NCBI GenBank assembly: GCA_041678505.1
Contig: JBAYOB010000001.1
Location: 1,667 to 65,666, forward strand
Direction of reading: 5' to 3'
Source of the DNA: Candidatus Dojkabacteria bacterium
Lineage (GTDB): Bacteria; Patescibacteriota; Dojkabacteria; SC72
DNA length: 64,000 bases
Numbering within the stretch: position 1 is the first letter of the stretch; each line of letters starts with the position of its first letter. The notes beneath the pieces were generated by a model. It worked only from the letters and a program-made list of their open reading frames with translations, did not search any database and was not told where the DNA came from. The position numbers and the translations under genes are program-made. This document shows, one piece after another, positions 8,773 to 63,987 of this stretch.

Positions 8773-8776
8773 TAAT

Positions 8777-10035: not shown

Positions 10036-10099
10036 AAAAACCCTCTAAATAAAAATTTCCATATAAAATAGCAATAATCATAATTACAGTGTAAAATAA

Positions 10100-11554
10100 G
10101 TGATTATGAGACTATACAGCACACTAGATAAGAAGATAGTAGATATCCAACCTCTTCAAAAAGGACAAATATCCATATATAACTGTGGACCTACAGTATA
10201 TTCAAGGATGCAAATAGGGAATATCAGGGCATATGTAAATTGGGATATATTACATAGAGCACTTGTATATCTAGGATATGACGTTAAAAGGGTGATGAAT
10301 ATTACTGATGTAGGGCATATGACATCAGATGATGATTACGGAAGTGATTTTGGAGAGGATAAGCTAGATATCCAATCACAAAAGGAGGGTGTTCAACCAA
10401 TAGATATAGCAAATAAGTATATTGATACCGTTGTAGAAGACTTTAGAGCATTAAATATACTTACACCAAATGGAGAGTTGTTTCCCAAAGATTTAACATA
10501 CAAAGATGTTCAAAACCATGGATTTACTAGAGCTACTGAATATATAGATGAAATGATAGAAATTATCAAAAAAATAGAGAAGAACGGATATACATACGAG
10601 ACAGAACAAGCACTCTACTTTGATGTTACTAAAATAGAGGACTATAATATATTTACAGGACAATCACTTGAAGAGAAAGAGATAGGGGTAAGAGAAGAAG
10701 TAGAGGTAGATTCTAAGAAAAGACATCCTGCTGATTTTGTACTTTGGATGAAAAAGACAGGAAAATATGCAAATCACCTTATGAATTGGGATTCTCCTTG
10801 GGGAGTAGGGTTTCCAGGTTGGCACATCGAATGTAGTGCTATGGGAGTAGCTTTGTTAGGAGAGAATTTTGATATACATACAGGTGGAGTAGATCACATT
10901 CCAGTACATCATACAAATGAAAGAGCTCAGAATATAGGAGCTTTTGGGCATCCAGTTGTAAATTACTGGATACATAATGAGTGGGTAGTAAACAGAGATG
11001 AAAGTAAAATATCTAAAAGTAAAGGGGCTACACTGTATCTTCCAAATCTAGTAGATATGGGTTTTGACCCTATGGATATTAGATACTATCTCCTTTCTAT
11101 TAACTACAGAACTAGAATTCAGTTCTCGCTTGATGCTTTAAAAGGTGCTAAAAATGCTAGATTAGCTGTTGTGAGAAGGGTGGGTGAGTTAGGTACTAAG
11201 AAAGGTAGTCTAATACCTGAATATATAGATAGATTTAAAGAAGCTTTAAGAGATAATTTAAATATGTCAAAAGCAGTAGCGATATTAAATGAACTCCTTA
11301 AGCTAGATGGCCCTAAGGAGGATATATTGGCTACTGTATTAGATTTAGATAGGGTATTAGGATTAGATTTAGATAGGGCTATTGTAGAAAAAGATAGTGC
11401 CGTAGATAGTGAGGTAGAAAAGTTGCTAAATTTGAGAGAAAAAGCAAAATTGGCAAAGAACTATCAGGCATCTGATAGATTGAGAGATGAAATATTGAAA
11501 TTAGGATATATAGTTAAGGATACTTTACAGGGGCAGAAAGTAGAGAAGGTGTAA
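10100..11554 (+). CDS. cysS: Cysteinyl-tRNA synthetase
   Basis: The call rests on '[20 protein letters not shown]' and the KMSKS-type motif 'KISKSKG'. The ORF track puts the first codon at a GTG at 10100; an ATG at 10106 is an alternative start. Confidence 0.9.
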
Positions 11555-46521: not shown

Positions 46522-48975
46522 TTGCTTAAAAACTTTCTTTCTATTAGAATTCTTACTATGATAATGATAATTGCTGTCCTAATACTGTTGATTCTTTCCC
46601 TTCTTTTTATCGTTTTAATACTTATAATTAGTGGTAAAAAAAAGAGTGATGAAGAGTATTACGAAGAGGTGCGAAACCCTTTCATTATGCAGATTTTAGT
46701 CCCCAGAGAGAATGAAAAAGCATCTTTAGCTGCAGAGCAGATGTTTGCATCCATACATGGAATTCTAGAAGATTATCAAAAGTGCCCAGATGTAGTAAGT
46801 TTTGAGATAGCATCTTCAGAAGAGCATGGTATAAAATTCTATGTTGTAGCATCAGAGCATCTTTCTAGGTTCATTGAAGGACAAATATATGCTCAGTATC
46901 CTAATGCGGATATAAAGTATGTTAATGACTATACCAAAAGAGAGAATGAAGAGAATGTTTTTGTTACGACAGGAGAAATAGAGATGGAGAAAGACTACAT
47001 TTTCCCAATCAAGACTTTTATGAGTTTTGAGGTGGATCCATTAGCGGCGATAACAGGAGCTCTTTCAGAGTTAAATAGAGGTGAGGAGGCTTGGCTTCAA
47101 ATAATTGTAAGGCCAGTATCAAACTATTGGCAAGAGAAAGCTAAGAAATATATTACAGCAATAGAGGAAGGAAAGAACCCTTATGCGAATACCTTCTGGG
47201 ATTTTGTTTCTTCTCTTTTTAAGGGAATAGGTAGTGCTTTAGCAGAAAGCCCTACAAGTAAAGTACAGAAGGAAATAGTGAAACTTTCTCCAGGACAGGA
47301 GGAAGAATTAAAAGAGATAGAAAAGAAGATGCTTAAGGTTGGTTTTGAGTTTAGAATTAGAGTGGTAACAAAGGCGGATACTCAATTAAGGTCAGAGCAA
47401 ATATTAAGAGATATGGTGGCTAGTTTCAAACAGTTTACAACAGCCCATCTAAATAATTTTGTACATATAGTGCCAGAGAAATCAGGTAAGGAGATATATG
47501 AAGATTATCTTAAAAGACATATTTCTCAGGAGGAGTTTGATATATTAAATATTGAAGAGTTAGCCTCTCTATACCACTTACCCAACATTTCAGTTGAAAC
47601 CCCTAATATTGCATGGAGTAGGGCAAAGAAGTTAGAACCTCCTATGAATTTACCCAAGAGTACTGAAGATGAGGTTACAGTATTTGGAGAAACGGATTAT
47701 CGTGATATTAAAGTAGAATTTGGTTTGAAAAAGAAGGATAGACAAAGACATTTCTATCTTCTTGGTAAAACGGGAACAGGAAAATCTACGCTATTTAAAA
47801 ATATGTTCATATCGGATGTTTTAGCTGGAGAAGGAGCCTGTTTTGTAGATCCTCACGGTGATACGGTTGAGGAGCTACTAGACTACATTCCTCCTAACAG
47901 GATTGATGATGTAGTATATTTCAATCCTACTGATGTAGAAAACCCAGTAGGATTCAATCTCTTAGAACTTAAGGATAAGTCTCAAAGAGATCTGATAGCA
48001 GATGGAGTGGTGGAGGTGTTTAAGAAACAGTTTGGAGACTCTTGGGGGCCTAGGCTGCAATATATCCTCACAAATACTGTTTCTACTGCACTAGAAGCAC
48101 AAGGGACGACTCTCTTAGCTATCATTAGGTTATTAACAGATAGTAATTACAGGAAGTTCATATTAAAACAGGTCGATGATCCAATCCTATACAAATTTTG
48201 GACAGAAGAATATGCTCAAATGGCACAGAATAGCCGTTTAATAACAGAAGCTATTTCTCCTATCCAAAATAAGGTGGGAAGATTCATATCCTCTGCTGTT
48301 ATTCGAAACATTATTGGTCAGATTAAATCAACGGTGAATTTAAGAGAAATAATGGATAACCAGAAAATACTACTTGTCAATTTAGCACAAGGTAAGTTAG
48401 GAGAAGAGACAGCTTCACTACTTGGGGGTATGGTAATAACTAGGTTACAGGCAACTGCTATGGAGAGAGTTGATATCGCAATGGATGACAGAAAAGATTT
48501 TTTCCTGTATGTAGATGAGTTTCAGAATTTTGCTACAGAATCTTTTGCTAAAATTCTTTCAGAAGCTAGAAAGTACAAACTAGATTTAACTATGACCAAC
48601 CAATATATTGATCAGATACCACTACCTGTTAGGCAATCCATATTTGGTAATGTAGGAACAATTGGCTCTTTTGTAGTAAGTCCTGCAGATGCTGCCATAT
48701 TAGAAAAAGAGTTTGCTCCGATGGTATCTGCTGATGATTTAGTTTCATTAGATGCTTGGGCAATGTATGTTAAATTGTGTATAGATGGGATGACATCTGT
48801 TCCTTTTAGTGCCAAATCACTACCGATTAGATATCATAAGTTTGCATTAAAAGATGATGTTGTTAGTAGGTCTAGAGAGAAATATGGAACAGAAAGAGAG
48901 GTAATTGAAGGGAAAATTAAGAAATGGAGCAATCAAAAATACAGTGATAAGGGGAATAGGTCTATAGAGAAGTAA
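46522..48975 (+). CDS. Membrane-anchored TraG/TraD/VirD4-family (type IV coupling protein-like) P-loop ATPase
   Basis: It has an N-terminal TM helix, the Walker A 'LLGKTGTGKSTL', the TraG/VirD4-type motif 'FVDPHGD' and a Walker B-like 'LYVDEFQNF'. Confidence 0.55.
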   Translation: MLKNFLSIRILTMIMIIAVLILLILSLLFIVLILIISGKKKSDEEYYEEVRNPFIMQILVPRENEKASLAAEQMFASIHGILEDYQKCPDVVSFEIASSEEHGIKFYVVASEHLSRFIEGQIYAQYPNADIKYVNDYTKRENEENVFVTTGEIEMEKDYIFPIKTFMSFEVDPLAAITGALSELNRGEEAWLQIIVRPVSNYWQEKAKKYITAIEEGKNPYANTFWDFVSSLFKGIGSALAESPTSKVQKEIVKLSPGQEEELKEIEKKMLKVGFEFRIRVVTKADTQLRSEQILRDMVASFKQFTTAHLNNFVHIVPEKSGKEIYEDYLKRHISQEEFDILNIEELASLYHLPNISVETPNIAWSRAKKLEPPMNLPKSTEDEVTVFGETDYRDIKVEFGLKKKDRQRHFYLLGKTGTGKSTLFKNMFISDVLAGEGACFVDPHGDTVEELLDYIPPNRIDDVVYFNPTDVENPVGFNLLELKDKSQRDLIADGVVEVFKKQFGDSWGPRLQYILTNTVSTALEAQGTTLLAIIRLLTDSNYRKFILKQVDDPILYKFWTEEYAQMAQNSRLITEAISPIQNKVGRFISSAVIRNIIGQIKSTVNLREIMDNQKILLVNLAQGKLGEETASLLGGMVITRLQATAMERVDIAMDDRKDFFLYVDEFQNFATESFAKILSEARKYKLDLTMTNQYIDQIPLPVRQSIFGNVGTIGSFVVSPADAAILEKEFAPMVSADDLVSLDAWAMYVKLCIDGMTSVPFSAKSLPIRYHKFALKDDVVSRSREKYGTEREVIEGKIKKWSNQKYSDKGNRSIEK

Positions 48976-50488: not shown

Positions 50489-50515
50489 TCTCCCCTGTTT
50501 ATGTTACAATATCAT

Positions 50516-50980
50516 ATGCGAATATTAGGAATAGACCCTGGTTTGGCTACTACAGGATGGGCAATTGTAGATTTTGATAAGAATGGAGATCCGGAAGTAA
50601 TAGATTACGGTTGTATATCTACAGAGAAAGGATTGCCTGTATCTACTCGTCTTTTAGAGATATTCAATGATATGCAGGAATTAATAGAGACATTTAAGCC
50701 AGATTTAGCAGGAGTTGAGACATTAATATTTTACAATAATGCGAAAACTGCTATGAATGTGGGTGAGGCAAGGGGAGTTGTGAGGGTGGTCTTAGAACAA
50801 AACAGTATCCCTGTAAAGGAATTTACACCTTTACAAGTTAAGAGTGCTGTAACAGGTTATGGAAAGGCTGAAAAGAAGCAAGTACAGGAAAATGTCAAAA
50901 TGTTGTGTAACTTAGATGAGATTCCTAAACCTGATGATGCTGCAGATGCAATAGCTATTGCTATAGCCTCATCTTCATGA
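50516..50980 (+). CDS. ruvC: Holliday junction resolvase RuvC
   Basis: 'MRILGIDPGLATTGWAIVD' matches the RuvC N-terminus. The start was re-set to 50516. Confidence 0.85.
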   Translation: MRILGIDPGLATTGWAIVDFDKNGDPEVIDYGCISTEKGLPVSTRLLEIFNDMQELIETFKPDLAGVETLIFYNNAKTAMNVGEARGVVRVVLEQNSIPVKEFTPLQVKSAVTGYGKAEKKQVQENVKMLCNLDEIPKPDDAADAIAIAIASSS

Positions 50981-51030: not shown

Positions 51031-51612
51031 ATGATCTCATATATAACGGGTATCGTATTAAAAAGTAATATATCTAAAAACTCGTATGTAGATATATTAA
51101 CAGATAGTGGGATAGGGTATAGGGTAAACATTCCTAATTCATATACTCCTTTATCTAAAGGAGAGAAATACTCACTATTTACCTATTTACATGTAAGAGA
51201 GGATACTCAAACTCTTTTTGGTTTTGAAAAAGAAGAGGAAAGAGATTTCTTTGAACAGATAATTTCAGTATCGGGGATAGGTCCTAAGACAGGGCTGGCA
51301 ATCCTTTCAACATATTCTAAGAGTAAACTAGAAGATATTATATTAAAGGGTGACTCTAAGGCTTTAAGTAAGGCCCCAGGTTTAGGAAGTAAGGGTGCAC
51401 AAAAGATAATATTGGAACTGAGAGGGAAGATAGATTTTGATGAAAAAGAGAGTAAGGAAGAAGAAATAATTAAGGAGCTAAAGGAGGTATTAAAGGCATT
51501 AGGTTTTTCAGGAGAACAGTTGAAAGAGAAGGTAACTATTGGAGAAAAGATATTATCAAAGAAGAAACAAATTAGTATAGAAGAACTTATTAAGGAGGTA
51601 TTAAACAAATGA
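51031..51612 (+). CDS. ruvA: Holliday junction branch-migration protein RuvA
   Basis: It has the N-terminal OB domain segment 'GIGYRVNIP' and HhH motifs 'ISVSGIGPKTGLAILS'. Confidence 0.85.
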   Translation: MISYITGIVLKSNISKNSYVDILTDSGIGYRVNIPNSYTPLSKGEKYSLFTYLHVREDTQTLFGFEKEEERDFFEQIISVSGIGPKTGLAILSTYSKSKLEDIILKGDSKALSKAPGLGSKGAQKIILELRGKIDFDEKESKEEEIIKELKEVLKALGFSGEQLKEKVTIGEKILSKKKQISIEELIKEVLNK

Positions 51613-52637
51613 TAAAGTCTACGGTAGATAAGAAAAAAACAGAGAAGAAAAAAGGAAAAGTTGTAGATTCTACATCTACAATTCCAGAATTAGAACAAAA
51701 AATTAGACCAAGTAAGTTAGATGAAATAATAGGGAGGAAAACAGAGAAAGAAACACTAGAAATGATGATAAATTCAGCTCAGAAAAGAAATGAGGTGATA
51801 GATCATATACTTTTCTATGGTCCTCCTGGTTTAGGGAAAACTACTTTTGCTATTGCAATAGCAAATGAAATAGGGGCATCTATTAAGATAACATCAGGAC
51901 CAGCAGTGGAGCGACAGGGAGATTTAGCTGCAATAGTAACGGGGTTAAAAGCTAATGATGTTCTTTTTATAGATGAAATACATAGATTGTCTAAGGTGGT
52001 GGAGGAGGTTCTTTATCCTGTTATGGAAGATAGGGTTTTAGACATTATAATGGGGAAAGGTCCTTCTGCTAAGACAATACGGTTGACACTAGAACCGTTT
52101 ACTTTGATAGGGGCTACAACTCAAATTGGGAAAATTAGTTCTCCTATGCGAGATAGATTCGGTTTAATACAGCGACTAGATTTCTTTTCCCAATCAGATT
52201 TAGTTTCTATTCTTGAGCGTGCTAGTAAATTGTGGGATATTAAGGCGGAAAAGGATGCTTTGAAGATGTTAGCTAATTGTTCTAGAGGAACGGCTAGGGT
52301 AGGGCTTAGATTGTTAAGAAGGACAAGGGATTATGCAGATAAAAAGAAATCAAGCACCATTACAGAAGAGATAGTAATTAAAACGATGCAACTTTTAGGA
52401 GTAGATCTTCAAGGTCTGGAGGAGATAGATAGAACAATACTTAGGACTATGTTAAATAATTTTGCAGGAGGACCTATCGGTCTTTCTACTTTAGCAGCAT
52501 CTATCTCTGAGGATGAAGTTACTTTAGCTGATGTACATGAACCCTATCTCATGAAGTGTGGCTACATTAAAAGAACATCTAGGGGTAGAGTATTAACAAC
52601 GAAAGGTCTAAAATATATAGAATCTGTAGATGGATAA
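51609..52637 (+). CDS. ruvB: Holliday junction ATP-dependent helicase RuvB
   Basis: It has the AAA+ Walker A 'LFYGPPGLGKTTFA' and a Walker B 'VLFIDEIHRL'. It overlaps ruvA by 4 bp. Confidence 0.9.
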   Translation: MIKSTVDKKKTEKKKGKVVDSTSTIPELEQKIRPSKLDEIIGRKTEKETLEMMINSAQKRNEVIDHILFYGPPGLGKTTFAIAIANEIGASIKITSGPAVERQGDLAAIVTGLKANDVLFIDEIHRLSKVVEEVLYPVMEDRVLDIIMGKGPSAKTIRLTLEPFTLIGATTQIGKISSPMRDRFGLIQRLDFFSQSDLVSILERASKLWDIKAEKDALKMLANCSRGTARVGLRLLRRTRDYADKKKSSTITEEIVIKTMQLLGVDLQGLEEIDRTILRTMLNNFAGGPIGLSTLAASISEDEVTLADVHEPYLMKCGYIKRTSRGRVLTTKGLKYIESVDG

Positions 52638-53451
52638 AATTGGTAGGAATATAGATGAGGAAAAGAGAGGTAAACTTCTAGTTCTTGCAGCTTTTATCTC
52701 TATTGCTATCTTTGTCACTAAGATTACTCAAGCACAGGCTCAGATTGTAGTATGGAGAGTGTATCTTAATGCAGCAATATATTTCTTAATTGCATTCGTT
52801 GGATTAATTTGGGCATTTGGATTTCAGATTAAGAAAAAGTCTATACTATTTATTCTTCTTCCCTCCTTTTATGTCTTTTCTCAAGCTCTGTTTATAGAGT
52901 TTTTCTTTTTCCAGAAGTTTAGTCGTATTTATGAAGCCATTATACTTCTTCTGTTAATATTTTTGGCCTTTTTAGGTAACTATGTTTCATTCTTAATGGC
53001 CAATGTTTTAAATGTAGATCTGTTTAAAAAAATACCTCTTGCACAGGTAGGTAGAACCTCTTCCTATCTGGTTTCTCTTCTAATGATGTATTTTTTTACT
53101 TTTAGTTTCCTAGTTAGTGGCTTCCCGCTGTATATTTTACTTCCTCTTCTGTTACTATCATATATTTTTGTTGTTTCTGTTCATTACTCTAATATTGGCC
53201 TAGAGGGTAGGGAGCTTTTAAGAAAAAGTATATTAACAATATTAATATCATTTACTCTTTTTCTAGGGATATTCCTAACAGGAGATGCTCATGAAGTTGT
53301 TGCTGCTATACCTGTTCTTGGTTATTTCTTTACAGTAGGGGTAGTTAGTAGAGAGAGAGTTGTTCACAGTAAAGCTAAAGGGATCTATTTGTATGCAATC
53401 ATTTTAGTAATAATGTTCCTTTTTGCAGTATTTTTAAATATTCGCAATTAG
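52630..53451 (+). CDS. Polytopic membrane protein, hypothetical
   Basis: It has about 7 hydrophobic helices and overlaps the ruvB stop. Confidence 0.4.
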   Translation: MDKIGRNIDEEKRGKLLVLAAFISIAIFVTKITQAQAQIVVWRVYLNAAIYFLIAFVGLIWAFGFQIKKKSILFILLPSFYVFSQALFIEFFFFQKFSRIYEAIILLLLIFLAFLGNYVSFLMANVLNVDLFKKIPLAQVGRTSSYLVSLLMMYFFTFSFLVSGFPLYILLPLLLLSYIFVVSVHYSNIGLEGRELLRKSILTILISFTLFLGIFLTGDAHEVVAAIPVLGYFFTVGVVSRERVVHSKAKGIYLYAIILVIMFLFAVFLNIRN

Positions 53452-53920
53452 AGAAATATGTGTGTTGTTTCATGAGAGTAGGGGGAGGGCACCTTGGAGC
53501 CCATAGTATCCGATGGCCTGTAGTAATCGGTGTGGATAAGGTTCTGCTAAATAAATCTTAGATGAAAATAAAAGAGACAGTATAGTAGAAGTATATCTTT
53601 TTAACGAATTTATATTCTTCTTGTATTTAATCATTTTAAATAATGGGGTTACTTCTTCTCCCCTTTACGATAATATGTTACAATACCAAATATGGCAATC
53701 GAGTATAATCATCCTTATATGCGGTGATGTACTCTGGGGCTTTGGAGGAGACTCTCTAAGATCTAATTTAAGATATTTAAATTAAATGAGATATATGATC
53801 AACCACACTTACCACAATTCAATCCTGTATTACTCTCTCTCATTCATATGTTCCTCATCAGCTTTTCAAAAAATAGTCCCCTACTCTGGTTGTTTAAATT
53901 TTAATTTGATATAAAGAGAT

Positions 53921-55285
53921 ATGGACAATTTCCCTAAATTAGAAGATCAAGATGACTTCTTACTCTACCTTCAGAATAATAATTACAGCATACAGAGCAT
54001 TCATAACTATGCACGTGATCTTTGTATATTTGCTACCTTTCTGTATTTCAGGAATGTAAAGTTTAAGAATATTACTAAGAGAGATATAAGTACGTTTAAA
54101 GGATACTTAGTTGCAGGAGAACATTTAAAAGATTTGGATAGATTTAGAGGTCAATACAGAAGAAAGATTGATACAGCAAGGGTTCAGAAGGACGAAGCTC
54201 TCAGAGGCGATCTAAGGCATGTTGAAATTCAAAGTGATACAGTTACACCTTTTGAAGAGGATGAAAAGTCGGTGAAACATGAGGAGAAGTTTGAAAGCAA
54301 ATTTTTGACTGATGTTTACAGTAAGGTCTATGGAAGTCTTGGGAAATTTTCTAAACCGTTGAATAGTTCAGCTAGGAAAAATAATGGATTGGATCCAAGG
54401 AGTATAAATAGGATGTTATCTGCTTTGAGATCTTTTTTAAGATTCAGAATATCTTGGGATTTGGATGTTCCAATTCCTCCAGATGCAATTGATATGATGA
54501 AAGCAGAAAAAAGGACAAAGAAGGTTGCTGATTTAGAAGAGCTTGTTAAATTAATTGAATCACCAATGCTTTTTGAGAGAGATGAAAGGGTGGCTTTAAG
54601 AAATAGGTGTATGCTAGAGATGTTAATTTCAACAGGTATGAGGATATCAGAGTTGATCTCTTTGGATTTGGAACAGATTAATGAAGATGGTAAATTATAT
54701 ATTATTGGTAAAGGTAAGAAAGAAAGATCTGTGTTTTTAACATCAAGGAGTTTGGATTGGTTAAATAAATATTTAGTGGTTAGGTTAAAATATGCATTTT
54801 TGGATAGGAGTAAAGATGAACAACCAGTAGAAATGAATGGGATTTTTGATGAAAATTATAGTGAAAAAGACCGTGAAACATCTGAGGTTTCTAACTTAAA
54901 TTTAGAAATTTTTGATAAAGGGAATAGGAAATATATAGGGCTGGTTGAAAAGTATAGGAAAAGTGGTCTGTTAAGTAAGTTTGATTCCCCTGCCCTATTT
55001 ATTCCTTTCTCAGGTGTTAGAGCTAAAAAACCTAATTCAAGATTATCTACAAACTATTTACAAGAAAGAATTGCTGTGTATAGAAGGAAGTTAGGTATAC
55101 AGATACCTACCTCTGCTCATAGCTTAAGGCATGGTTTTGCTACCTACTTGGCAGAACAAGGAGCTAGTCCAGTGGCGCTACAACTGTTGTTAGGTCATGA
55201 GAGTTTAAATACTACTACAAGGTATGTCCATGCAAGTGAGAAATTTGCAGAGGAAACTGTTAGAAAGAATCATCCATTGAAATAA
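53921..55285 (+). CDS. Tyrosine-type site-specific recombinase/integrase (XerC/D-like catalytic domain; 454 aa with insertions)
   Basis: Three catalytic motifs are present: box I 'LRNRCMLEMLISTGMRISEL', box II 'SAHSLRHGFAT' and the Tyr motif 'LLGHESLNTTTRYVH'. Confidence 0.8.
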   Translation: MDNFPKLEDQDDFLLYLQNNNYSIQSIHNYARDLCIFATFLYFRNVKFKNITKRDISTFKGYLVAGEHLKDLDRFRGQYRRKIDTARVQKDEALRGDLRHVEIQSDTVTPFEEDEKSVKHEEKFESKFLTDVYSKVYGSLGKFSKPLNSSARKNNGLDPRSINRMLSALRSFLRFRISWDLDVPIPPDAIDMMKAEKRTKKVADLEELVKLIESPMLFERDERVALRNRCMLEMLISTGMRISELISLDLEQINEDGKLYIIGKGKKERSVFLTSRSLDWLNKYLVVRLKYAFLDRSKDEQPVEMNGIFDENYSEKDRETSEVSNLNLEIFDKGNRKYIGLVEKYRKSGLLSKFDSPALFIPFSGVRAKKPNSRLSTNYLQERIAVYRRKLGIQIPTSAHSLRHGFATYLAEQGASPVALQLLLGHESLNTTTRYVHASEKFAEETVRKNHPLK

Positions 55286-55302: not shown

Positions 55303-58300
55303 CTAATTTGCATCATTAATGATAGAGTAGAATGCATGTAGAATGTATGTTAGTTTTTCTCCCTCTTCATGTTGTTCTGTGGTACTAGTAGTATTTAAGT
55401 CCGGATGAGCTCTTTTTAGTATATTGATATATACCTTACGCCAATCTTTAAACTGTGATCTCTGTTTTCTAATTAAAAAGATTTTTTCCGCTTCAGTAAG
55501 AGATGAAGGGCCATTATCTAGTAGTTTTGCAAGAATCTGTATGGGCAAATTCCTTACTGTTTCAAGAAAATTATATGACTGCTGTTCAATAGGGTCTGAA
55601 GAGTCTTTATTAAATCCCCAAAATGGGTCATATTTCTGTTCTGGTTGTTCATGTTCAGACTGTTCAGAGGATGCCGAGTCTCCATCTGTAAAGTTTCCTT
55701 TATATCTGAGATATTCCTGTATTATTGGAATTTTACTAATATAGTTTTCGTACATGTCTACATAAAGCCCGTTCCTTAGTCCAGGATTTCCATATCCTTC
55801 TGCTTGTGATTCGTATTCGAATGCTGGAGTTATTAAATCTCCTCCTTTAATCCAATTTCTATGCAGTCCAGTAGAAGTAATATTTCCTTCTTCATGAATT
55901 CCTCCTATCCAAACTCTACCTTTTGTATCCTTGTAGAGCGTGTATCTTAAAGAATTATCGTTAGAGGGATAGACTTCAACTGTAACTTCACCACCATAAA
56001 AAAGGCTCCTTTGACTCCATGTGTCAATGAGATTGGAATAGTTAGGAGACTCTTCTTCGGTAAGTACTAATTCTTCTGGAGGTACTTTTTCATTTGAGCC
56101 TGTTGTATAAGGGAAGTTCTTGAGTTCTCTAGGGTTTTCGTTTATCTCTTGATAATAAGAGTACTTCTCAGATTCCGTGTTATTTACCTGATTGTATTTT
56201 GTTCCTAGTCTTGCAGTACCGGCAAAAACGAATTCAGCATCATCTATTGCTAGAATAGAATTTTCATCCTTTGTTATCTCTGATAAGGCTTTACTTATTG
56301 GAATTGGAAGCCCAAGGCTTTCTTCACTCCATCCCTTACCATACCATCCAATAGAACTGTTATCATTTGGGTCAAGACTGTAGTAAGGCAATAGTCTCCA
56401 TGTGGCAGAAGAGTTGCTAAGATAATAAGATCTTGCATAAACCTTATCTTCCTGTTCTACATATGCTACAACAGCCAAGCGGTTACCCATAATTCTGTAT
56501 GCTGATGAGGATAACCATATTACAGAGTTTTCCATGTTTATTCTGTATTTTGGTGATAAACCTTTCTCTCTTAATATCTCTGCAGTTAAGGTTTTTCCCT
56601 GATATAGATCACCTTCTATTATTACTTTGTCTAATATTCTCTCTGCGTCATCACTTTCCAATGTATGGATACCATAAGCTATTTCACCTTGTGTAAAAGG
56701 AGAATCCTCCAAAACTTGTTCTGGAGTGCTACTTTGATACGATTGCTCAGAAGATGTAATTTCTTCATCAAGAGGTATATTTCCTACAAAAGAACCCGCC
56801 TCTTCTTCTTTTATACGTAGAATTCTTTGAGCTAACACTCTACTAGTTATTATTTCTCTTTCCTCTATAGGTTTCATTGTGCCCCACTCTACCCAAGTAC
56901 TGTTTTCCTTAATACCAGATTGTACTTTTTGGAATCCACCATTATTGCCATGAGGGAAAAGGTTTATTCTTCTTCTACCTCTTTGTCCGTCGGCAGAAGA
57001 GATATTATCTAGTACATTTGTAAGTACTTCTATTTTAGTGTCATTTTCTTGAGAAAGAAGTGTATCAACTAGGTCCTCTATCTCAATTGGTTGGCTATCC
57101 ATAAACCATCCTAAATTAGTAAGTGTAAAAGAGTGATTACCCATTATAAATATCTGTCCGTTAGGCATAAATTTATAGTTCTTATCTGTATAATCTTTTC
57201 CAAAAACCTGTGTAATAAGTATTTCTCTAGTGTATTCTTCAAGTAGAGGGTCTACAGGCTCAGGTTTGGGGATTTCAACATTTAATTCAGGTATAGATAA
57301 AATAGTTTCTCTAATAATTCTTCCTTCTTTAGCTGGGAAAAGAGATGCTATAGCTAAAGATGAAGTAATACCTAATGTGTTTAGTGTAAGATTGGGAGTA
57401 GTATCCACCAATGTTGTTAGGTCTATAGAATCTACAGTGGCTTCAAAATTAAAATTAATTCCAGGGGAACTTTGGGTTATCGTTTGTCCAGGGGATGAAG
57501 CAGGGAAATTAACAGGTAGCCCATTGTTAAGTTGTTGTAACCATCTCATTACTGTGGGAGAATTTGTTATTTCAAATTGTTCAGCAGGTTGTACAGGATT
57601 GTTTAGTCCAAATTCAGTTCTAATATTTGCATCATTAATATTATGCCCCCCTCCATCTCTATACAAAAAATTTTGTAACTCATGTTTTTCTCCCTGCATG
57701 TTAGGGTTGTACTCTTTTGCTACGGTGAGGATCTTATCGAGCAAGGATGGCACAGAATCTCCTGTCTCTACCTTAATAATGGAAGAGCTTGGTGTCCCTT
57801 CTGTGACAGAAATAGATTCAGATCCAGGGATACTAGATAGTTGTGCAAGGTTAATATTGTGTGCAGTACCGTTAATCTGAACAACAGTATCTCCGTTAGC
57901 TTGTATGTTTGAGATAGACATAGATGCTGTGGAACCATCACTCATTGATGCTTTCAATGCACCGGTCAATTGTGATTGATTCATAATGGAAAGGTTCCCA
58001 CTACTGTCGGAGTGAATTATTCCTACTACTTCTCCCTGTTGTCCTACTATTGTTCCCATTATTCCTGTATTTGAACCTGTAAACTCAGAAACAGATACTT
58101 TCCCAAAGCCAGGGTTTTGAATTTCAAAAAGTTTTTCAGCCCCAACAGTGTTCTTAGCATAGAATTCATTAGTATTAGGGACATGTACTAAATCAGCAGC
58201 CCCATCTCCATCTAGATCGATTAGATTTACATCTCTCCCTGTGTGGTCTTTGTATTGGGACACATTTGCATTTTGATTATTTAATGCATTTCTATACTGA

Positions 58301-59943
58301 TCTCGTACTAAGTTTTGATTCTTTTGAATTTCTATTTGCCCTACTCCCGAATGGATTAATTTCCCAGCAGCAATAGATGTAAATGTTAAGTTTGCAAGAG
58401 TATTTCCTGTTTTGATCCCTAATGTCTTGTTGACTAAATCAAAGTAGGTGCTTCTTTCATTAGAAAGTAGGTTCTCTACATCAGTTGCTTCCAAACTTAC
58501 AAATTTGGTTATTATCTCTACTGCAAGTTTTTTCCTGTCATCTTCAGCACTGTTGTTCCATGCCTCAGATGTTAAATTGATAAGCTCTTCATTATCAAGG
58601 GTATCTATAAAGCTTTCGATATTAATACCTATAATTTCCTCCATAGGGTATTCCTGAGTACTTGTTGGTAAATCACGAAAACCTATATTAGTTATATCTA
58701 CTTCCTTTCTGATGTCGTTTCCTTGATTATCTTTTTCTGTATAATGTACATATTTATATTTAGGATCACCTGTTTGTTTATATAGATAGTTAAGTGCGGC
58801 TATAGCTGTTTTCTGAGCTGTTTTTACTTCATCTGGAGATAAATTGGGATCTTGTATGTCGCTAATAACTTTACTGATATCTATACCCTCTCTCTTAACA
58901 TACCCTAAATTTTTAAGTTTGTTATATCTTCTCTGTTCAAAGGAATTCAAATACGAATCTAATAGTTCTTGTTGCTTTTTATTTAAATCACTTTCTAGTT
59001 TTGCTTGCATCCCAATTTCTATTGCAGTAGAACCTACTACCATAGCGATAGGTAATGCTGGTCCTACACCGGGTATTAAAGCAGGAAGTAACATTCCAGC
59101 ACCTCCCTTCATAAGACCTGATACCGCAAGACCTGTAGCTACTCCTTTTAAAAACCCCTTATCTTTTATCAATTCAGAAACAGTTTTCCCTTGTTCTTTA
59201 GCTGATATTTTCATTCCTTCATAGACTTTATATGCAGTGTAACCACCAAGCCCTAACATTATGGCTCCAGCTCCTATGGCCCCTGCAGGTCCTAGGGTTG
59301 CTATGGCTAAGCCTGTTCCTTTTGCTACTGCAAGAGAACCAGCTACAGATATTCCTATTTGGGATACTAAACCCTTCCATCTCTGTCCTGAAAACATTCT
59401 CTTAATAGTTGCAAAATATCCATTATTTGTTTTACCAGCCTCTTCGATTTCTTTCTTTTCTTCTTGCGAAAGAGGAACTAGAGCATTTGCTCTTTCTACG
59501 ATGACCGTATTTATTTGTTCTGTTTGATTGGATATATCTTGTTCAGGAGTGTCTTGTTGCTCCTCCATAGGTCTAGGATCTCCGGTCAAAGCAATATCTA
59601 CAGCACTTCTTATTAAATTAGAGTCAGAACTTTCCTCTGGTATAGCTGTGTTTGTTTCATCAGGAGTATCTTGTTGCCCCTCCATGGGTCTAGGACCTCC
59701 GGCCATAGCAATATCTATAGCACTTCTTATTAAATTAGGGTCAGAACTTTCCTCTGGTATAGCTGTGTTTGTTTCATCAGGAGTATCTTGTTGCTCCTCC
59801 ATAGGTCTAGGACCTCCGGCCATAGCAATATCTACAGCACTTCTTATCAAATTAGAATCAGAGCTTTCCTCTGGTATAGGTGTAGAGATATTTCCTTCAG
59901 AAGGAGTCTCGTCTTCTCTACTGTTTCCTATTTCTGGGTCCAT
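55303..59943 (-). CDS. Giant (1546 aa) repeat-containing membrane-associated protein, hypothetical. It has N-terminal tandem 39-aa repeats, Gly/Ala-rich hydrophobic helices and a C-terminal J-domain-like segment.
   Basis: It is an uninterrupted ORF. The N-terminus carries three copies of the 'NTAIPEESSD.NLIRSA.DIAMAGGPRPME.QQDTPDET' repeat. Hydrophobic stretches include 'GISVAGSLAVAKGTGLAIATLGPAGAIGAGAIMLGLGG'. The C-terminus reads 'YINILKRAHPDLN...EKLTYILHAFYSI', which contains an HPD motif. Confidence 0.55.
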   Translation of the reverse strand: MDPEIGNSREDETPSEGNISTPIPEESSDSNLIRSAVDIAMAGGPRPMEEQQDTPDETNTAIPEESSDPNLIRSAIDIAMAGGPRPMEGQQDTPDETNTAIPEESSDSNLIRSAVDIALTGDPRPMEEQQDTPEQDISNQTEQINTVIVERANALVPLSQEEKKEIEEAGKTNNGYFATIKRMFSGQRWKGLVSQIGISVAGSLAVAKGTGLAIATLGPAGAIGAGAIMLGLGGYTAYKVYEGMKISAKEQGKTVSELIKDKGFLKGVATGLAVSGLMKGGAGMLLPALIPGVGPALPIAMVVGSTAIEIGMQAKLESDLNKKQQELLDSYLNSFEQRRYNKLKNLGYVKREGIDISKVISDIQDPNLSPDEVKTAQKTAIAALNYLYKQTGDPKYKYVHYTEKDNQGNDIRKEVDITNIGFRDLPTSTQEYPMEEIIGINIESFIDTLDNEELINLTSEAWNNSAEDDRKKLAVEIITKFVSLEATDVENLLSNERSTYFDLVNKTLGIKTGNTLANLTFTSIAAGKLIHSGVGQIEIQKNQNLVRDQYRNALNNQNANVSQYKDHTGRDVNLIDLDGDGAADLVHVPNTNEFYAKNTVGAEKLFEIQNPGFGKVSVSEFTGSNTGIMGTIVGQQGEVVGIIHSDSSGNLSIMNQSQLTGALKASMSDGSTASMSISNIQANGDTVVQINGTAHNINLAQLSSIPGSESISVTEGTPSSSIIKVETGDSVPSLLDKILTVAKEYNPNMQGEKHELQNFLYRDGGGHNINDANIRTEFGLNNPVQPAEQFEITNSPTVMRWLQQLNNGLPVNFPASSPGQTITQSSPGINFNFEATVDSIDLTTLVDTTPNLTLNTLGITSSLAIASLFPAKEGRIIRETILSIPELNVEIPKPEPVDPLLEEYTREILITQVFGKDYTDKNYKFMPNGQIFIMGNHSFTLTNLGWFMDSQPIEIEDLVDTLLSQENDTKIEVLTNVLDNISSADGQRGRRRINLFPHGNNGGFQKVQSGIKENSTWVEWGTMKPIEEREIITSRVLAQRILRIKEEEAGSFVGNIPLDEEITSSEQSYQSSTPEQVLEDSPFTQGEIAYGIHTLESDDAERILDKVIIEGDLYQGKTLTAEILREKGLSPKYRINMENSVIWLSSSAYRIMGNRLAVVAYVEQEDKVYARSYYLSNSSATWRLLPYYSLDPNDNSSIGWYGKGWSEESLGLPIPISKALSEITKDENSILAIDDAEFVFAGTARLGTKYNQVNNTESEKYSYYQEINENPRELKNFPYTTGSNEKVPPEELVLTEEESPNYSNLIDTWSQRSLFYGGEVTVEVYPSNDNSLRYTLYKDTKGRVWIGGIHEEGNITSTGLHRNWIKGGDLITPAFEYESQAEGYGNPGLRNGLYVDMYENYISKIPIIQEYLRYKGNFTDGDSASSEQSEHEQPEQKYDPFWGFNKDSSDPIEQQSYNFLETVRNLPIQILAKLLDNGPSSLTEAEKIFLIRKQRSQFKDWRKVYINILKRAHPDLNTTSTTEQHEEGEKLTYILHAFYSIINDAN
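59543..59893. repeat. Three tandem, near-identical 117-bp direct repeats encoding the N-terminal 39-aa repeats of the giant protein
   Basis: Copies start at 59543, 59660 and 59777 ('tcaggagt.tcttgttgc.cctccat.ggtctagga.ctccgg...'). Only a few substitutions separate the copies. Confidence 0.8.
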
Positions 59944-59965
59944 TACTTAAAAATCATAAATTATA

Positions 59966-60442
59966 TTATTCCCCATTAATAATTCTATCTACCCCTTCAT
60001 AATCTCCAGCTTCAAGTAACTCTTTTGCCTTATCAATCTCTTGTTCAGATAATTGCGATATTTTAATATGTAAGTCTTTTGTATTTACTATCTCTTCTAG
60101 TGTGTCTTTTATCAACGAATCCATTATTTCAGAGTTTATAGTTTCCAAATCTTTATTTGTCTTATTTAATAGAAATTTATTCAATACAAGCAGTTGTTGC
60201 GCACTATTTGCTCCAGAATCAACAAAATCTTTCCATTTGCTAAATTCTTCATCATTCATTAAGGCACTTATTTTTGCTAATGTTTGCTTAATACTTGTAG
60301 TAGACAAGCTAAAAACGAGAGTTTCTATCTGTTCATCATTGAAACCTAGATTTTGAAGATTGCTGGTGAAAGTCTTTAACTTTTCCTCTAGAAGGTCACT
60401 ATCTTGTACGAGAGAAGATAGACTTTGTTGGGCAGAATCCAT
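59966..60442 (-). CDS. Small acidic, predicted all-helical protein (158 aa), hypothetical. It lies 22 bp upstream of the giant ORF and is co-directional with it.
   Basis: It is an ORF with coding-like composition and is rich in D/E/L/K with no TM segment. Confidence 0.45.
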   Translation of the reverse strand: MDSAQQSLSSLVQDSDLLEEKLKTFTSNLQNLGFNDEQIETLVFSLSTTSIKQTLAKISALMNDEEFSKWKDFVDSGANSAQQLLVLNKFLLNKTNKDLETINSEIMDSLIKDTLEEIVNTKDLHIKISQLSEQEIDKAKELLEAGDYEGVDRIINGE

Positions 60443-60546
60443 ACATTACTTTTACCAAATTATACGTAAACATATAGTAGTAATTAAAAAGGGAAAAGTC
60501 AATAAAAACATATTAAAATGATGACTAACATACTCTTAAAAACACA

Positions 60547-62559
60547 CTACTGTTTTCCAATAGCTTTGAAAGAGGTGTTCAACACATTTTCTTTCTTAAC
60601 GACATTAAATCTTACTATTTCTTGAATAGCTTCAAAACCATGTTTAAACCATCTCATCTTTTTACCCTCTTGCTCTGTTCTTGGATTATAGTAAATATCT
60701 AGTTCTTTAACATTAAGTTTCTTTTTATTTACTTTTCTGTAACTTGCAAATTTAGCGGTAGATTCAGGTTCTAAACCAAAGTTTGTAGTAGATACTAAAG
60801 AAGAGAAAACATCTCTTACAATATCCCCTCTACCCATCTTGTAACAGGTCTCCATATCTTTTACTCTAAAACCTTTTGAGAAAGTAAATAGATTAGAAAC
60901 AGTAGTAACAAACTTGTTTCCTAAAAGATGAGTTTTGTTTATAAAGGTATTACCTTTGTTAAATCTGTTACCGTATATTAAATCGGTGTATGGTTGAGTG
61001 ATAAAGATATCTACAAATCTTGCCAAGTCATTAGGTTTGTATTCTAAGTCAGCATCCTGTACTACTACGAGGTCTCCCGTACTATGTAATACTCCATGTT
61101 TAACTGTCTGAGATTTTCCTAAGTTCTCATGGTTATGTAAAAGTTTATATTCAGAATCATTACTATTTGCTCTCTTTACAAAAGATTTTACTAATTCAGC
61201 TGTACTATCAGTAGATTTATCATTAACTATTATTATCTCTTTTGTAATACCGTTGGATAGTTCAATGTCATTAACCTTTTTAAGAAGTTTAAGTATAGTG
61301 TTCTCCTCATTGTAAACAGGTATGACGATTGAAAGTTTACTTATATTCTCAGCGTAAAGATGATCATAGAAGATGTTTTCATAATATTTATTAACCATAG
61401 CTTTGTTAGAGAAATTCTCTTTTGTTAATATTGCAATACTATTATGCATATCTTTCTTTTTACTATCCTCTATTGCCATAGCTAATCTCCTAGACATATC
61501 GGCAGCATTTCCTCTAACAAAGATATATTTTTCTGTTCCTGTCGTTCTTGCTATTTCTCTGTTACTTGGTGCATTAGAAAGAACAGGAATATTACCAAAA
61601 GCACAAGCTTCTAAAATACCTAAAGCTAATCCTTCGCTTAGAGAGCTGTTAACATAGATTTTAGATTTTCTCAGAAGTCTAAAAAGATCCTCCTGCTTTA
61701 TAAATTTGGGGATAATCTCAATATTCTTAGGAAGATTTTTGTATTTCTTTAATGATTTACCCTCACCAATTAATACAAATTTCCAATCTGGATATCTTTT
61801 GGCAATCTTTCTGTATCCTCTTAAAGCAGTACTAGGATCCTTTACCTCTATCCATTTAGCTGCCCACACAACGATATTTTCTTTCTTTCCTGAATCATTC
61901 CTTATCTCTTTAGAATCATGCCCGTTGTATATCACATCTATAGCATCTCTCTCAATATTAAATGTTTTTGATGCCCATTTTCTTCCTGTTTCTGATACAG
62001 TTATTACATTTTCTGCAAATTTAGGAACAAACTTAAATATATTCCCATCTGCCCATTTTGCTAATTCTGTTGTAAATTTAGTACTAAAGAATGCATTTCC
62101 TGCATTATGCTCAATAACGGTATATTTATGACCTAGTACTATACAAAGTAATGCAGCAATAATGCTACTTGTTACATGTCTACTATGGATAATTACCTTT
62201 GCGTTGGTGTTCTTTCTTAAAAGATTGAAAAGATGTATTGTAAATCCAATGCCAAATATAGGGTATGTGCCATTAAAGATGTTTTTAACTTTAAAACTAT
62301 TTAATTCGAAACCATCTATAGTTGTTCTATATTTCTTGTCAGAACCGAATACTGATATACAACTAAGGCCTTTTTTCTGTAATCCTGATACAAGATTGTA
62401 AGCCATGTTCTCCAATCCCCCTACCCTAGGATAGAAGAAATGAGAGATTGATATCAAATCATATTTATTTTTCTGTTTTTTATCAAAAATCTTCATAGAA
62501 ATGGTGTCTTTAAAGTATTTTATATAATCTAACAGTACTACATTATACCACAAAAACAC
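60547..62559 (-). CDS. Bifunctional glycosyltransferase: an N-terminal GT4 (GT-B) domain fused to a C-terminal GT2 (DPM1-like, GT-A) domain
   Basis: The GT4 motifs are 'ISHFFYPRVGGLENMAYNL' and 'SLSEGLALGILEACAFGNIPV'. The GT2 motifs are 'LSIVIPVYNEEN', 'IIIVNDKSTDST' and 'VVVQDADLEY'. The likely true start is ATG 62496 (MKIFDKK). Confidence 0.7.
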   Translation of the reverse strand: MFLWYNVVLLDYIKYFKDTISMKIFDKKQKNKYDLISISHFFYPRVGGLENMAYNLVSGLQKKGLSCISVFGSDKKYRTTIDGFELNSFKVKNIFNGTYPIFGIGFTIHLFNLLRKNTNAKVIIHSRHVTSSIIAALLCIVLGHKYTVIEHNAGNAFFSTKFTTELAKWADGNIFKFVPKFAENVITVSETGRKWASKTFNIERDAIDVIYNGHDSKEIRNDSGKKENIVVWAAKWIEVKDPSTALRGYRKIAKRYPDWKFVLIGEGKSLKKYKNLPKNIEIIPKFIKQEDLFRLLRKSKIYVNSSLSEGLALGILEACAFGNIPVLSNAPSNREIARTTGTEKYIFVRGNAADMSRRLAMAIEDSKKKDMHNSIAILTKENFSNKAMVNKYYENIFYDHLYAENISKLSIVIPVYNEENTILKLLKKVNDIELSNGITKEIIIVNDKSTDSTAELVKSFVKRANSNDSEYKLLHNHENLGKSQTVKHGVLHSTGDLVVVQDADLEYKPNDLARFVDIFITQPYTDLIYGNRFNKGNTFINKTHLLGNKFVTTVSNLFTFSKGFRVKDMETCYKMGRGDIVRDVFSSLVSTTNFGLEPESTAKFASYRKVNKKKLNVKELDIYYNPRTEQEGKKMRWFKHGFEAIQEIVRFNVVKKENVLNTSFKAIGKQ

Positions 62560-62583
62560 CCCATAGTAAATCTCGCCCTAAGG

Positions 62584-63987
62584 CTAGTTAGGTACGACTA
62601 AAAGTCTGAAATTGCTGTCTAAATACACAATTTCATACCCTTTTGAAAGGAGAAATAAACCTAATTCCTCAATATCAGGTATTCCATAATTATTATTTAT
62701 CTCATACTCATACATAGAGTTTAGCCAAGGAATATTATCTTGGTTCACATATCTCTTTTTTGAGTAGATTCTGCTAGAAAGAAGGATACACAGGTTGTTC
62801 CTTTTAATATCTCCTGCGATTAAGAGTTCTTCATATGTTCTTTCTTTTGGTGAATTTACAAACTCTACAAGTGCTTCTCTTGTTTTTAGCTCCTGATAAT
62901 GTCCTCCAGCAGTTTGATAATCTGTATAGCTTGCTACTATTAATTGGGTATATGGATCAGAAACTATTTGACAATCATATTTGTTGTTTTTTAAATGCAT
63001 AACTATCCCATTATCATCATTTGAAATAGCAGATATTTTACCCGTATTTTGAGTATAGAAAAGGTTGTATTTTTGTGAGTTTAGGAGATAGAAAGGGAGA
63101 GAAGAGGTAAAGAGAATAGAAAGGATAGTTATAGCAAGTATTTTGTTTGTTCTTAAGTCTAAGAGAAGTAAACATATGAGTAATATCATAAAGACAGTAC
63201 TTCCAAGTAAAAACTTGTTTGCATATGTAGGGCCTAAAAAGAAAAGAGATAGAGATACTGATATGTAAAAAATTGCGAATAAAGAGATGTTTCCTTTGTC
63301 CTTTTTCTTAAAGATAAAATATACAGCTGCAATAATTAGTGGTATTAAAAGAGGACCGTACTGTGTGGCTAGGAACTTTAAGTTATCAGGGAAATAATAG
63401 TTACTTAGATACCCTATCTGCTCTATATCTTGAATTTGTAGTAACTTTTCAATACTAAATCCTCTTAAGTTGGCAAAAAAAGTAATAATTACACTTAAAA
63501 AGGATAGTAGTGTAAATGTTTTAGCTAATCCGAAGTTTTTAGGTTTGCTGTGTGGATTGAATACAGTAATAGAAATTATTGAAAGTGCAGTGAAGAGAGG
63601 ACCGAATATGAAGTGTGTAGATATTAATATTGGTGTAACTAGGAGGACCTTTTTCCAGTTTAAGTTTTTTTCTAAAAGAATATTTAAGAAAAGGAAAAAT
63701 GTAAGTGTTTGAGGAAGAATGAAGTTAAAAGAGTGTGCGCCTATTTCAAATACAAAAATAGCTGATAATGATGCTAAAAAGGAGATTGTTTTGTCTTTAA
63801 TATGTCTGTTTAAGAAGAGAGAGATAAGTAATGAGGAAACAGCAATAAAGGCAATGTTTAAGGATACTTCTGCTATTCCAATATTTAGGTTTGATCCTAC
63901 TGTATGTACTGTTTGGATGGTGTGGTAATATGTCGTATATCCAAGTTTTTTAAACAAAGAGGAACATTGGTTTGGTGTTATACACAA
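62584..63987 (-). CDS. Polytopic membrane protein (~9 TM) with a C-terminal soluble domain. It may be a GT-C-type glycosyltransferase or polymerase/ligase-like. Its 5' end may extend beyond the window.
   Basis: It has many hydrophobic helices. The frame is still open at the window edge and the apparent start codon is TTG. Confidence 0.35.
   Translation of the reverse strand: MCITPNQCSSLFKKLGYTTYYHTIQTVHTVGSNLNIGIAEVSLNIAFIAVSSLLISLFLNRHIKDKTISFLASLSAIFVFEIGAHSFNFILPQTLTFFLFLNILLEKNLNWKKVLLVTPILISTHFIFGPLFTALSIISITVFNPHSKPKNFGLAKTFTLLSFLSVIITFFANLRGFSIEKLLQIQDIEQIGYLSNYYFPDNLKFLATQYGPLLIPLIIAAVYFIFKKKDKGNISLFAIFYISVSLSLFFLGPTYANKFLLGSTVFMILLICLLLLDLRTNKILAITILSILFTSSLPFYLLNSQKYNLFYTQNTGKISAISNDDNGIVMHLKNNKYDCQIVSDPYTQLIVASYTDYQTAGGHYQELKTREALVEFVNSPKERTYEELLIAGDIKRNNLCILLSSRIYSKKRYVNQDNIPWLNSMYEYEINNNYGIPDIEELGLFLLSKGYEIVYLDSNFRLLVVPN

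Follow-up and report, generated by a model that had tools for sequence, protein, structure and literature searches.

The locus described here raises a simple question: what is the function of the long non-coding gap that precedes a tyrosine recombinase gene in a genome of Candidatus Dojkabacteria? The window, by which we mean the whole stretch of 64,000 nucleotides analysed (contig JBAYOB010000001.1), carries this gap at positions 53452-53920, between a gene for a membrane protein and the recombinase gene, which encodes 454 amino acids at 53921-55285 on the plus strand. The original prediction regarded the gap as a leader and offered two readings, namely the boundary of an integrated element, or a housekeeping XerC/D with a dif-like site. 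We assign a probability of roughly 80% to a more specific form of the latter: the locus is probably a gene-linked Xer/dif module for the resolution of chromosome dimers, situated at the terminus of this member of the candidate phyla radiation (CPR, Patescibacteria) and accompanied by motifs that resemble the FtsK orienting polar sequences (KOPS). Rather than serving mainly as a leader, the 469-bp gap contains the predicted target of the recombinase.

As had been noticed, the gap is the longest non-coding stretch of the window, with no open reading frame (ORF) of at least 60 amino acids in its 469 bp, and the next longest stretch measures 173 bp. A scan of a genome collection recovered 79 related loci; in 65 of them the corresponding gap is 426-520 bp long, blastn with the gap matches the corresponding position in nearly all loci, and the conserved blocks follow one another in the same order with spacings whose standard deviation is about 7 bp. 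The sharpest of these blocks is a 28-mer, ATCGAGTATAA-TCATCC-TTATATGCGGT (53698-53725; family consensus ACCGAGTATAA-TCACCC-TTATATGCGGT), which we predict to be the dif site and which is most likely the target of the recombinase. It consists of two 11-bp imperfect inverted arms around a 6-bp centre, and dif has been defined by 11-bp arms and a 6-bp spacer (PMC2958812). Conservation is distributed according to this layout, being 86-100% in the arms, 51-83% at positions 2-4 of the centre and 30-60% in the immediate flanks. The arms are complementary at 9 of 11 positions in 49 of the 69 loci and at 8 of 11 in 16 of them, with a fixed asymmetry at positions 5-6. Two loci have changed both arms symmetrically (C to T in the left, G to A in the right), which fits a single protein reading both arms. 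Identity to the dif site of E. coli extends to 13-14 of the 28 positions, including the inner ATAA-N6-TTAT.

The 28-mer occurs once in the window, 196 bp upstream of the recombinase ATG, and once in each of the 69 loci; under a stricter pattern the 760,270-bp and 556,949-bp contigs yield one match each, among the matches listed (80 of 97). Repeats of the 11-6-11 type with at least nine matching positions are not rare, as the window holds 22 of them, and the evidence for the 28-mer is therefore its conservation and not the palindrome as such. The same consideration applies to the 19-bp palindrome AATTTAAGATATTTAAATT at 53765-53783, which had been put forward as a possible dif-like or recombinase-binding site. 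The palindrome is present, but it stands at chance level and outside the conserved system: perfect 7-5-7 inverted repeats number 12 in the window against 7.6 ± 3.4 in shuffled sequences (65 with loops of 3-8), the mean column identity is 0.49 compared with 0.90 for the 28-mer, and the exact 19-mer is absent from all 65 related gaps. The housekeeping reading, an Xer recombinase with a dif-like site, is supported, the predicted site being the 28-mer and not the palindrome. Past the 28-mer, the recombinase match begins after approximately 220-265 bp in 69 loci from genomes and about 60 from metagenomes, with a single exception, locus L142. Here ruvA, ruvB, the membrane-protein gene and the dif region with both of its flanking GAGTAGGG motifs are intact (oriented 1-8781, site at 2561), while the 6.2 kb downstream contain no recombinase and are occupied instead by genes for a 1179-aa membrane protein and a GT2 glycosyltransferase. 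The dif region persists without xer in this locus, and it is therefore not merely a leader of xer.

Two observations on the 28-mer deserve separate mention. First, assembly breaks cluster at it: 7 of 51 complete metagenome contigs end at most 60 bp away, against 1.67 expected (P ~0.002), a 100-N scaffold gap in L057 (9879-9979) starts inside the centre of the 28-mer, and a 557-kb contig ends 78 bp from it (the loci listed for breaks at the site are L057; L139, L149, L156, L168, L174, L181, L186; L125). The breaks are compatible with a recombination hot spot and with a coverage trough at the terminus, and prove neither. Second, dif-like 28-mers with the host left arm ACCGAGTATAA but with other 6-bp centres are found on low-GC phage-like contigs, all of them short fragments. 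These sites adjoin HTH_17/excisionase-like genes (L189, reverse complement, site at about 1889; L164, L176, L151) or lie beside small-terminase genes (L133, L085 (1155-1177); L098/L185 are also listed), and in L189 and L164 GATACAGT iterons stand next to them. A loose dif pattern run against viral contigs gave 33 matches, approximately the number expected by chance; two better ones fall inside an ORF, and L085 and L098 remain weak leads. The phage-like contigs may represent elements of CPR bacteria that exploit Xer in the manner of integrative mobile elements exploiting Xer (IMEX).

The position of the 28-mer on the chromosome is the second line of evidence. It lies at the shift point of the GC skew, with the polarity of a terminus. 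Genes upstream are on the plus strand in 99% of cases and the skew there is +0.25; downstream, where the minus strand carries two thirds of the coding DNA, it drops to about zero or below in all of the 26 loci compared. The cumulative G-C maximum of the window falls at 55673. Coding-strand skew by side is ambiguous within 10 kb, which was resolved by walking further in the 760-kb contig. In the 28 kb around the locus on this contig the skew ranges from +0.21 to +0.43 up to the recombinase and from -0.04 to -0.19 past it (mostly -0.12 to -0.19), bar one 2-kb window at +0.14. The cumulative maximum is at 11349 (recombinase gene at 10001-11365, 28-mer at 9775), 1.6 kb from the site, and a 16-kb co-oriented block including holB, gyrB and gyrA converges on xer.

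The third line of evidence is a polar octamer. In about 1 Mb of pooled flanking sequence, from which the gap was excluded, GAGTAGGG is the most skewed of the frequent octamers: 107 copies point toward the site and none away from it, where an order-3 Markov model expects 21 and 6.4, respectively. Every top-strand copy is upstream of the site and every bottom-strand copy downstream, without exception. The looser pattern G[AG]GNAGGG points toward the site 520 times and away 16 times (top strand, 320 upstream and 9 downstream; bottom strand, 7 upstream and 200 downstream). Within genes transcribed away from the site, 27 copies of GAGTAGGG point toward it and 0 away; for G[AG]GNAGGG the numbers are 101 and 5, part of the latter count being one conserved site inside xer. 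Polarity is kept in head-on genes and therefore follows the site, not transcription, so that a purine bias of coding strands is no explanation. The counts are not all independent, because the same conserved positions recur in many loci (position -1376, and GGGCAGGG in xer). The window alone contains nine copies of GAGTAGGG against 1.9 ± 1.5 expected, and all nine are directed toward the site: those at 3745, 10803, 13151, 16752, 28533, 47616 and 53476 on the plus strand, three of the seven inside minus-strand genes, and those at 53879 and 58339 on the minus strand. The switch of polarity is also seen elsewhere (L113; 22 kb of the 760-kb contig).

Close to the 28-mer the octamer forms an inverted repeat, with one inward GAGTAGGG on each side at a distance of about 200 bp. 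On the left, GAGTAGGG (53476-53483, plus strand) overlaps with GGGGAGGG (53482-53489, plus strand); on the right, an inverted copy about 400 bp from the left one occupies 53879-53886 on the minus strand (top strand CCCCTACTCT, 53878-53887), some 35-45 bp before the start codon. Both are conserved in related gaps and point toward the dif site. The left pair belongs to the GC-rich segment at 53473-53545 that the original prediction had singled out as atypical, correctly, as its 53% GC in a window of 34% GC is reached by 0.2% of all 73-bp windows; the segment is composed of the two overlapping G-rich polar octamers and further conserved short motifs. A further polar motif, GGGCAGGG, is located on the template strand of the recombinase gene (54988-54995, minus strand), points back to the dif site and is found at the same place in about 42 loci. 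This KOPS-consensus octamer arises from the conserved SPAL codons TCC CCT GCC CTA, and C-ending SPAL codons are unusual at 34% GC.

GAGTAGGG differs by a single base from GAGAAGGG, the SRS of B. subtilis (SpoIIIE recognition sequence). The KOPS consensus GGGNAGGG is contained in G[AG]GNAGGG (PMC5357621). By analogy with KOPS and FtsK, the most likely role of GAGTAGGG is to orient a DNA translocase toward dif, although it may also have a Chi-like role.

Taken together, these features suggest a mechanism in which binding and cleavage by the recombinase, as well as the identity of the translocase, are predicted. When crossovers, which the adjacent RuvABC would process, are odd in number, a dimeric chromosome would result, and its two copies of dif would meet at the septum. 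The translocase would be steered to them by GAGTAGGG, polar along both chromosome arms and inverting at the site. Recombinase protomers would bind both of the nearly symmetrical arms of each site, and strand exchange across the 6-bp centre, via a Holliday-junction intermediate, would restore monomers.

The protein is an Xer-type tyrosine recombinase by Pfam and NCBIfam matches, by sequence matches in the PDB and by Foldseek. It scores 110.5 bits against PF00589 (Phage_integrase; cut-off 27.1), and its N-terminal SAM-like domain 37.7 bits against PF02899 (Phage_int_SAM_1; cut-off 22.3). The R, H-x-x-R and Y motifs first read from the sequence are part of a complete catalytic set, R241, K264/K267, H400-x-x-R403, H426 and Y435, which is invariant across 23 orthologues. 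The best matches among PDB chains are XerD 1a0p (2e-21), the XerD catalytic domain, XerA 4a8e and XerH 5jjv. The AlphaFold model has a mean pLDDT (predicted local distance difference test) of 62, with both insertion linkers below 50, and was used solely to place the protein in the Xer/integrase fold neighbourhood, where IntI4, XerA, XerD and XerH are the closest according to Foldseek. Among NCBIfam models the highest scores are those of XerD (TIGR02225; 166.2 bits, cut-off 329.6) and XerC (TIGR02224; 162.2 bits, cut-off 335.15), each matching in two separate stretches, followed by the generic tyrosine-recombinase subfamily NF001399 (152 bits), XerA (NF040815; 135.2 bits, cut-off 220) and XerS (NF003462; 84.8 bits, cut-off 267). 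The recombinase is outside the curated XerC, XerD, XerS and XerA families.

The estimate that the protein is about 150 residues longer than a canonical Xer also proved right, and the approximately 155 extra residues are accounted for by two insertions relative to E. coli XerD. The first, of about 89 residues (query ~57-151), lies between XerD positions 53 and 60 (query 56-152), and the second, of about 65 residues (query ~286-380), between XerD positions 191 and 222 (query 285-381). Each insertion combines a variable linker of low pLDDT with a conserved segment, for example FESKFL..VYSKVYGSLG and LNLEIFDKGNRKYI..YR..G.L.KFDSPALFIPF. Orthologues of 432-486 residues share 60-97% identity and fill more than 100 protein clusters, which are named Dojkabacteria/WS6 where they are named. 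An exact-sequence look-up returned no database record for the recombinase of the window, and the 64 kb contain no second recombinase.

Several points weigh against the interpretation as a Xer/dif module. The recombinase scores far below the cut-off of every curated Xer model (XerC, XerD, XerS, XerA). The RQ..QQ residues of XerD, which are the C-terminal residues that touch FtsK-gamma (PMC5357621), are not kept, XerD ...ERLRQLHQQHHP being aligned with ...EKFAEETVRKNHP. A tblastn search with the E. coli FtsK motor and gamma domains gave no match in 2.26 Mb, which says little as it covers this neighbourhood only. Over the first 10 kb or so downstream the skew is weak, about zero rather than -0.25. 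With G-U pairs allowed on the plus strand, the 28-mer fits an RNA hairpin as well, and a conserved extended -10-like element stands 15 bp upstream of it. Finally, the gap has conserved parts that are outside what a plain dif model accounts for: the CCYRTAG repeats, TGTGGATAA and TGCTAA.

These additional parts have fixed places. Two direct copies of CCYRTAG (53500-53523, plus strand), CCCATAG at 53500 and CCTGTAG at 53517, occupy conserved alignment columns, and relatives have two or three copies with a spacing of about 17 bp. At 53531-53539, TGTGGATAA reads as the DnaA-box consensus TTATCCACA on the bottom strand; it is invariant or nearly so in the aligned gaps, and no second perfect copy occurs in the 64 kb of the window. 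It is followed by the TGCTAA block and then by about 100 bp of unconserved purine-rich DNA. Conserved columns resume with a hairpin, GGGG..CCCC, at 53643-53661 (GGAGTAG..CTACTCC in relatives), and with the extended -10-like TGTTACAAT (family TGTTAYRAT; 53674-53682, plus strand), a putative promoter element that in most loci precedes GAGTATAA by 25-28 bp. The hairpin and the -10-like element may constitute a terminator for the ruv operon and a promoter firing across dif. A consensus scan of the gap was uninformative on this point, with fewer promoter-like matches than in shuffled sequences and no terminator-like site. Between the 28-mer and CCCCTACTCT there are about 150 bp of unconserved pyrimidine-rich DNA. 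Small ORFs of 33-54 aa in the gap all fall in unconserved, indel-rich stretches.

It is tempting to unite all of these parts. In such a scheme the region of about 420 bp would be a composite "terminus organiser", in which a dif core, CCYRTAG iterons, a DnaA box, the hairpin/promoter-like element and fixed spacers would together control the timing and topology of recombination, possibly through a nucleoprotein complex with the two insertions of the recombinase, DnaA or a fork-arrest protein, and phages would exploit the site by means of IMEX-type dif mimics. We regard this extension of the Xer/dif module as speculative and, at present, rather unlikely.

An alternative to the Xer/dif module, to which we give a low probability, is that the 28-mer is a transcriptional operator only, or the 5' stem-loop of a transcript that starts from TGTTAYRAT, serving for example in autoregulation of the recombinase. 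The extended -10-like motif is indeed conserved 15 bp upstream, a palindrome would suit a dimeric repressor, and one-sided changes in the arms retain wobble pairing on the plus strand. On the other hand, recombinase core sites have just this 11-6-11 arrangement and variable centre, both the skew and the polar motif invert exactly at the 28-mer, and in L142 the site persists with its flanks although the 6.2 kb downstream lack xer. Sites with the same arm also stand beside excisionase-like and terminase genes on the phage-like contigs. The roles of operator and dif are compatible with each other.

Fainter still is the prospect that the whole gap specifies a structured non-coding RNA of about 410 nt, closed by pairing of GAGAGUAGGGGG (from 53473) with CCCCUACUCUG (to 53889) and having the 28-mer as an internal hairpin. 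The two ends are complementary in 98% of alignment cells, one pair shows 14 double changes from G-C to A-U with G-U intermediates, the 5' segment is GC-rich, and spacer lengths are conserved. However, the strands of the supposed helix are copies of the genome-wide polar octamer, and because that octamer inverts at the site their complementarity is explained without RNA; moreover, A.C mismatches appear on either strand in different loci. The remaining indications of a fold are negative as well. Scanning the GC-rich segment with covariance models, as the original prediction had proposed, brought neither a match nor a conserved fold: Rfam reports nothing in the gap even with E up to 10, permissive matches being noise (small nucleolar RNA and microRNA models), and on the whole window it reports just two tRNAs, outside the gap. 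The fold energy is no better than that of shuffled sequences (z of -0.63 and -1.63 for the plus and minus strands, respectively). RNAalifold gives, for the gap, the two inverted repeats and one weak five-pair stem, mostly of G-U pairs and with no compensatory change, and for the GC-rich block essentially nothing, at -4.5 kcal/mol and without a single compensatory pair. Between the blocks lie approximately 250 nt of unconserved AT-rich sequence, and the promoter-like element lies midway in the proposed RNA. In the two inverted repeats 98.6% of positions are "paired", with double changes at three pairs, above the level of shuffled sequences; this covariation is equally explained by a DNA motif that both copies share and one protein reads.

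The other half of the original prediction, the boundary of an integrated element or islet bearing the giant ORF and glycosylation genes, retains hardly any credibility; in that reading the recombinase would serve as integrase and the gap would hold the attachment site. The circumstances that had suggested it are real. The gene lies at a convergent junction, its stop 17 bp from that of the giant ORF, tail to tail as described (55285 against the minus-strand end at 55303), beside variable surface and glycosylation genes; the downstream content differs among loci, and composition shifts at the end of the gene. Nevertheless, the recombinase and both of its flanks are syntenic across the class. On the near side, ruvC (50501-50980), ruvA (51031-51612) and ruvB (51609-52637), all on the plus strand and identified with Pfam and NCBIfam, are followed by the gene for a 273-aa polytopic membrane protein (52630-53451, plus strand), the gap and the recombinase. 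This order is kept in about 65 of the 79 genome loci and in about 60 metagenome loci; essentially all loci that reach far enough show it. On the far side, as seen in three long contigs (760-kb JGI, 320-kb NCBI and 72-kb JGI), a block that contains holB, gyrB, gyrA, VanY, a sortase, a 632-aa membrane protein, a GT4-GT2 glycosyltransferase, a 158-aa protein and the giant ORF runs into the 3' end of the recombinase gene. With both flanks conserved, the locus is therefore not an island boundary. Neither are the other signs of an island present: a tRNA/tmRNA scan found nothing in the gap, and the junction has no tRNA; each 21-kb locus holds a single copy of the 28-mer and hence no direct repeat that could mark a second boundary; and the shift in composition is an inversion of the GC skew and not a change in GC content. 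The recombinase, with its 60-97% conservation, is a core gene and not an accessory one. We likewise see next to no chance that the gap acts as an origin of replication or as a region under DnaA control, for which the invariant TGTGGATAA (TTATCCACA) might speak as the sole perfect DnaA box in 64 kb, since there is one box only, genes converge on the locus instead of diverging from it, cumulative GC skew is at its maximum and not its minimum, and no dnaA or dnaN is nearby.

Some of the neighbouring genes merit comment in their own right. The start of the 273-aa membrane protein overlaps the stop of ruvB by 8 bp; the protein is always encoded between ruvB and the dif region, shows 42-82% identity across the class and has no match in Pfam or NCBIfam. 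Further upstream, at 46522-48975, an 817-aa protein combines an N-terminal membrane helix with a P-loop domain of the VirD4/TraD/HerA type, matched weakly in Pfam and NCBIfam. This member of the FtsK/HerA superfamily is no canonical FtsK; relatives (L115) keep its gene in synteny, about 5 kb upstream of ruvC. Downstream, the opposite block of co-oriented genes, on the other replichore, begins with the convergent giant ORF of 1546 aa (55303-59943, minus strand), which has no Pfam or NCBIfam match and has homologues at the same place in L020, L071, L073, L117 and L118. The remainder of 55303-63987 encodes the 158-aa protein, a GT4-GT2 glycosyltransferase fusion of 670 aa and a membrane protein that the window end truncates and that has 632 aa in relatives. 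The whole is a variable surface/glycosylation region beside the terminus, with an order that is kept in several Dojkabacteria and replaced in others.

If the locus is a Xer/dif module, what does it offer? CPR bacteria are uncultivated and their chromosome biology has been deduced almost wholly from sequence. One class of them would now gain a testable trio, consisting of a recombinase, its 28-bp target and an 8-bp motif that marks the two replichores, which opens the way to biochemistry with the 454-aa protein and short oligonucleotides. The site and the polarity of the motif would mark the terminus and could serve to orient and check metagenome-assembled genomes, with GAGTAGGG helping to orient Dojkabacteria assemblies in particular, and the site could be used in the search for mobile elements. 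In addition, a false call of an island boundary is removed from the annotation.

A literature search for Xer/dif in Patescibacteria found nothing relevant. The nearest known systems come from other lineages. The plasmid sites cer and psi also have a core within about 200 bp of conserved flank on each side, but no accessory factor of the ArgR, PepA or ArcA type, nor a binding site for one, was recognised at our locus. The sites on phage-like contigs, with the same left arm and a different centre, recall the IMEX elements (CTX, VGJ and TLC phages), but no integration junction was seen. The XerC/XerD-dif-FtsK-KOPS system of E. coli and Vibrio shares the 28-bp 11-6-11 site with the inner ATAA-N6-TTAT (13-14 of 28 positions in common with GGTGCGCATAATGTATATTATGTTAAAT), the location at the GC-skew shift and a polar G-rich octamer converging on dif (SRS in Bacillus), and XerD and XerC are the best sequence matches. 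Unlike these proteins, the Dojkabacteria recombinase has about 155 extra residues, scores half of the equivalog cut-offs and does not conserve RQ..QQ, and in E. coli neither xerC nor xerD is adjacent to dif. Its arms are symmetrical at 8-9 of 11 positions whereas those of E. coli dif are at 6 of 11, and the greater symmetry suggests that one protein reads both arms.

In the archaeal XerA/dif system one recombinase acts on a highly conserved 28-bp 11-6-11 site with nearly perfectly symmetrical arms, and the conserved sequences or inverted repeats that flank it have been proposed as binding sites for partners (PMC2958812). Short polar sequences invert at archaeal dif too (PMC5357621). However, the dif of Thermococcales is not beside xerA (PMC2958812), the match to the XerA model is 135 bits against a cut-off of 220, and the polar motif in Dojkabacteria is no tetramer but a KOPS-type, G-rich octamer. 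Linkage of dif to the recombinase gene is a hallmark of two single-recombinase systems, XerS/difSL of Streptococcus and Lactococcus and XerH/difH of Helicobacter and Campylobacter, in which site and gene form one module at the terminus, as is predicted here (PMC5357621). Both resemble the present locus also in that the protein is longer than XerC/D and the arms are nearly symmetrical with a small conserved asymmetry. The differences are that the protein has 454 residues instead of about 355 and two insertions of its own; that it reaches 85 bits with the XerS model (cut-off 267) and matches XerH chains only at E = 3e-12; that the centre has the canonical 6 bp, compared with 11 bp in difSL; and that the site, embedded in a conserved region of 420 bp with extra motifs, is separated from the gene by about 200 bp. 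Dojkabacteria would be the third bacterial lineage with xer and dif as one module, here combining a canonical 6-bp centre with a recombinase that carries two conserved insertions.

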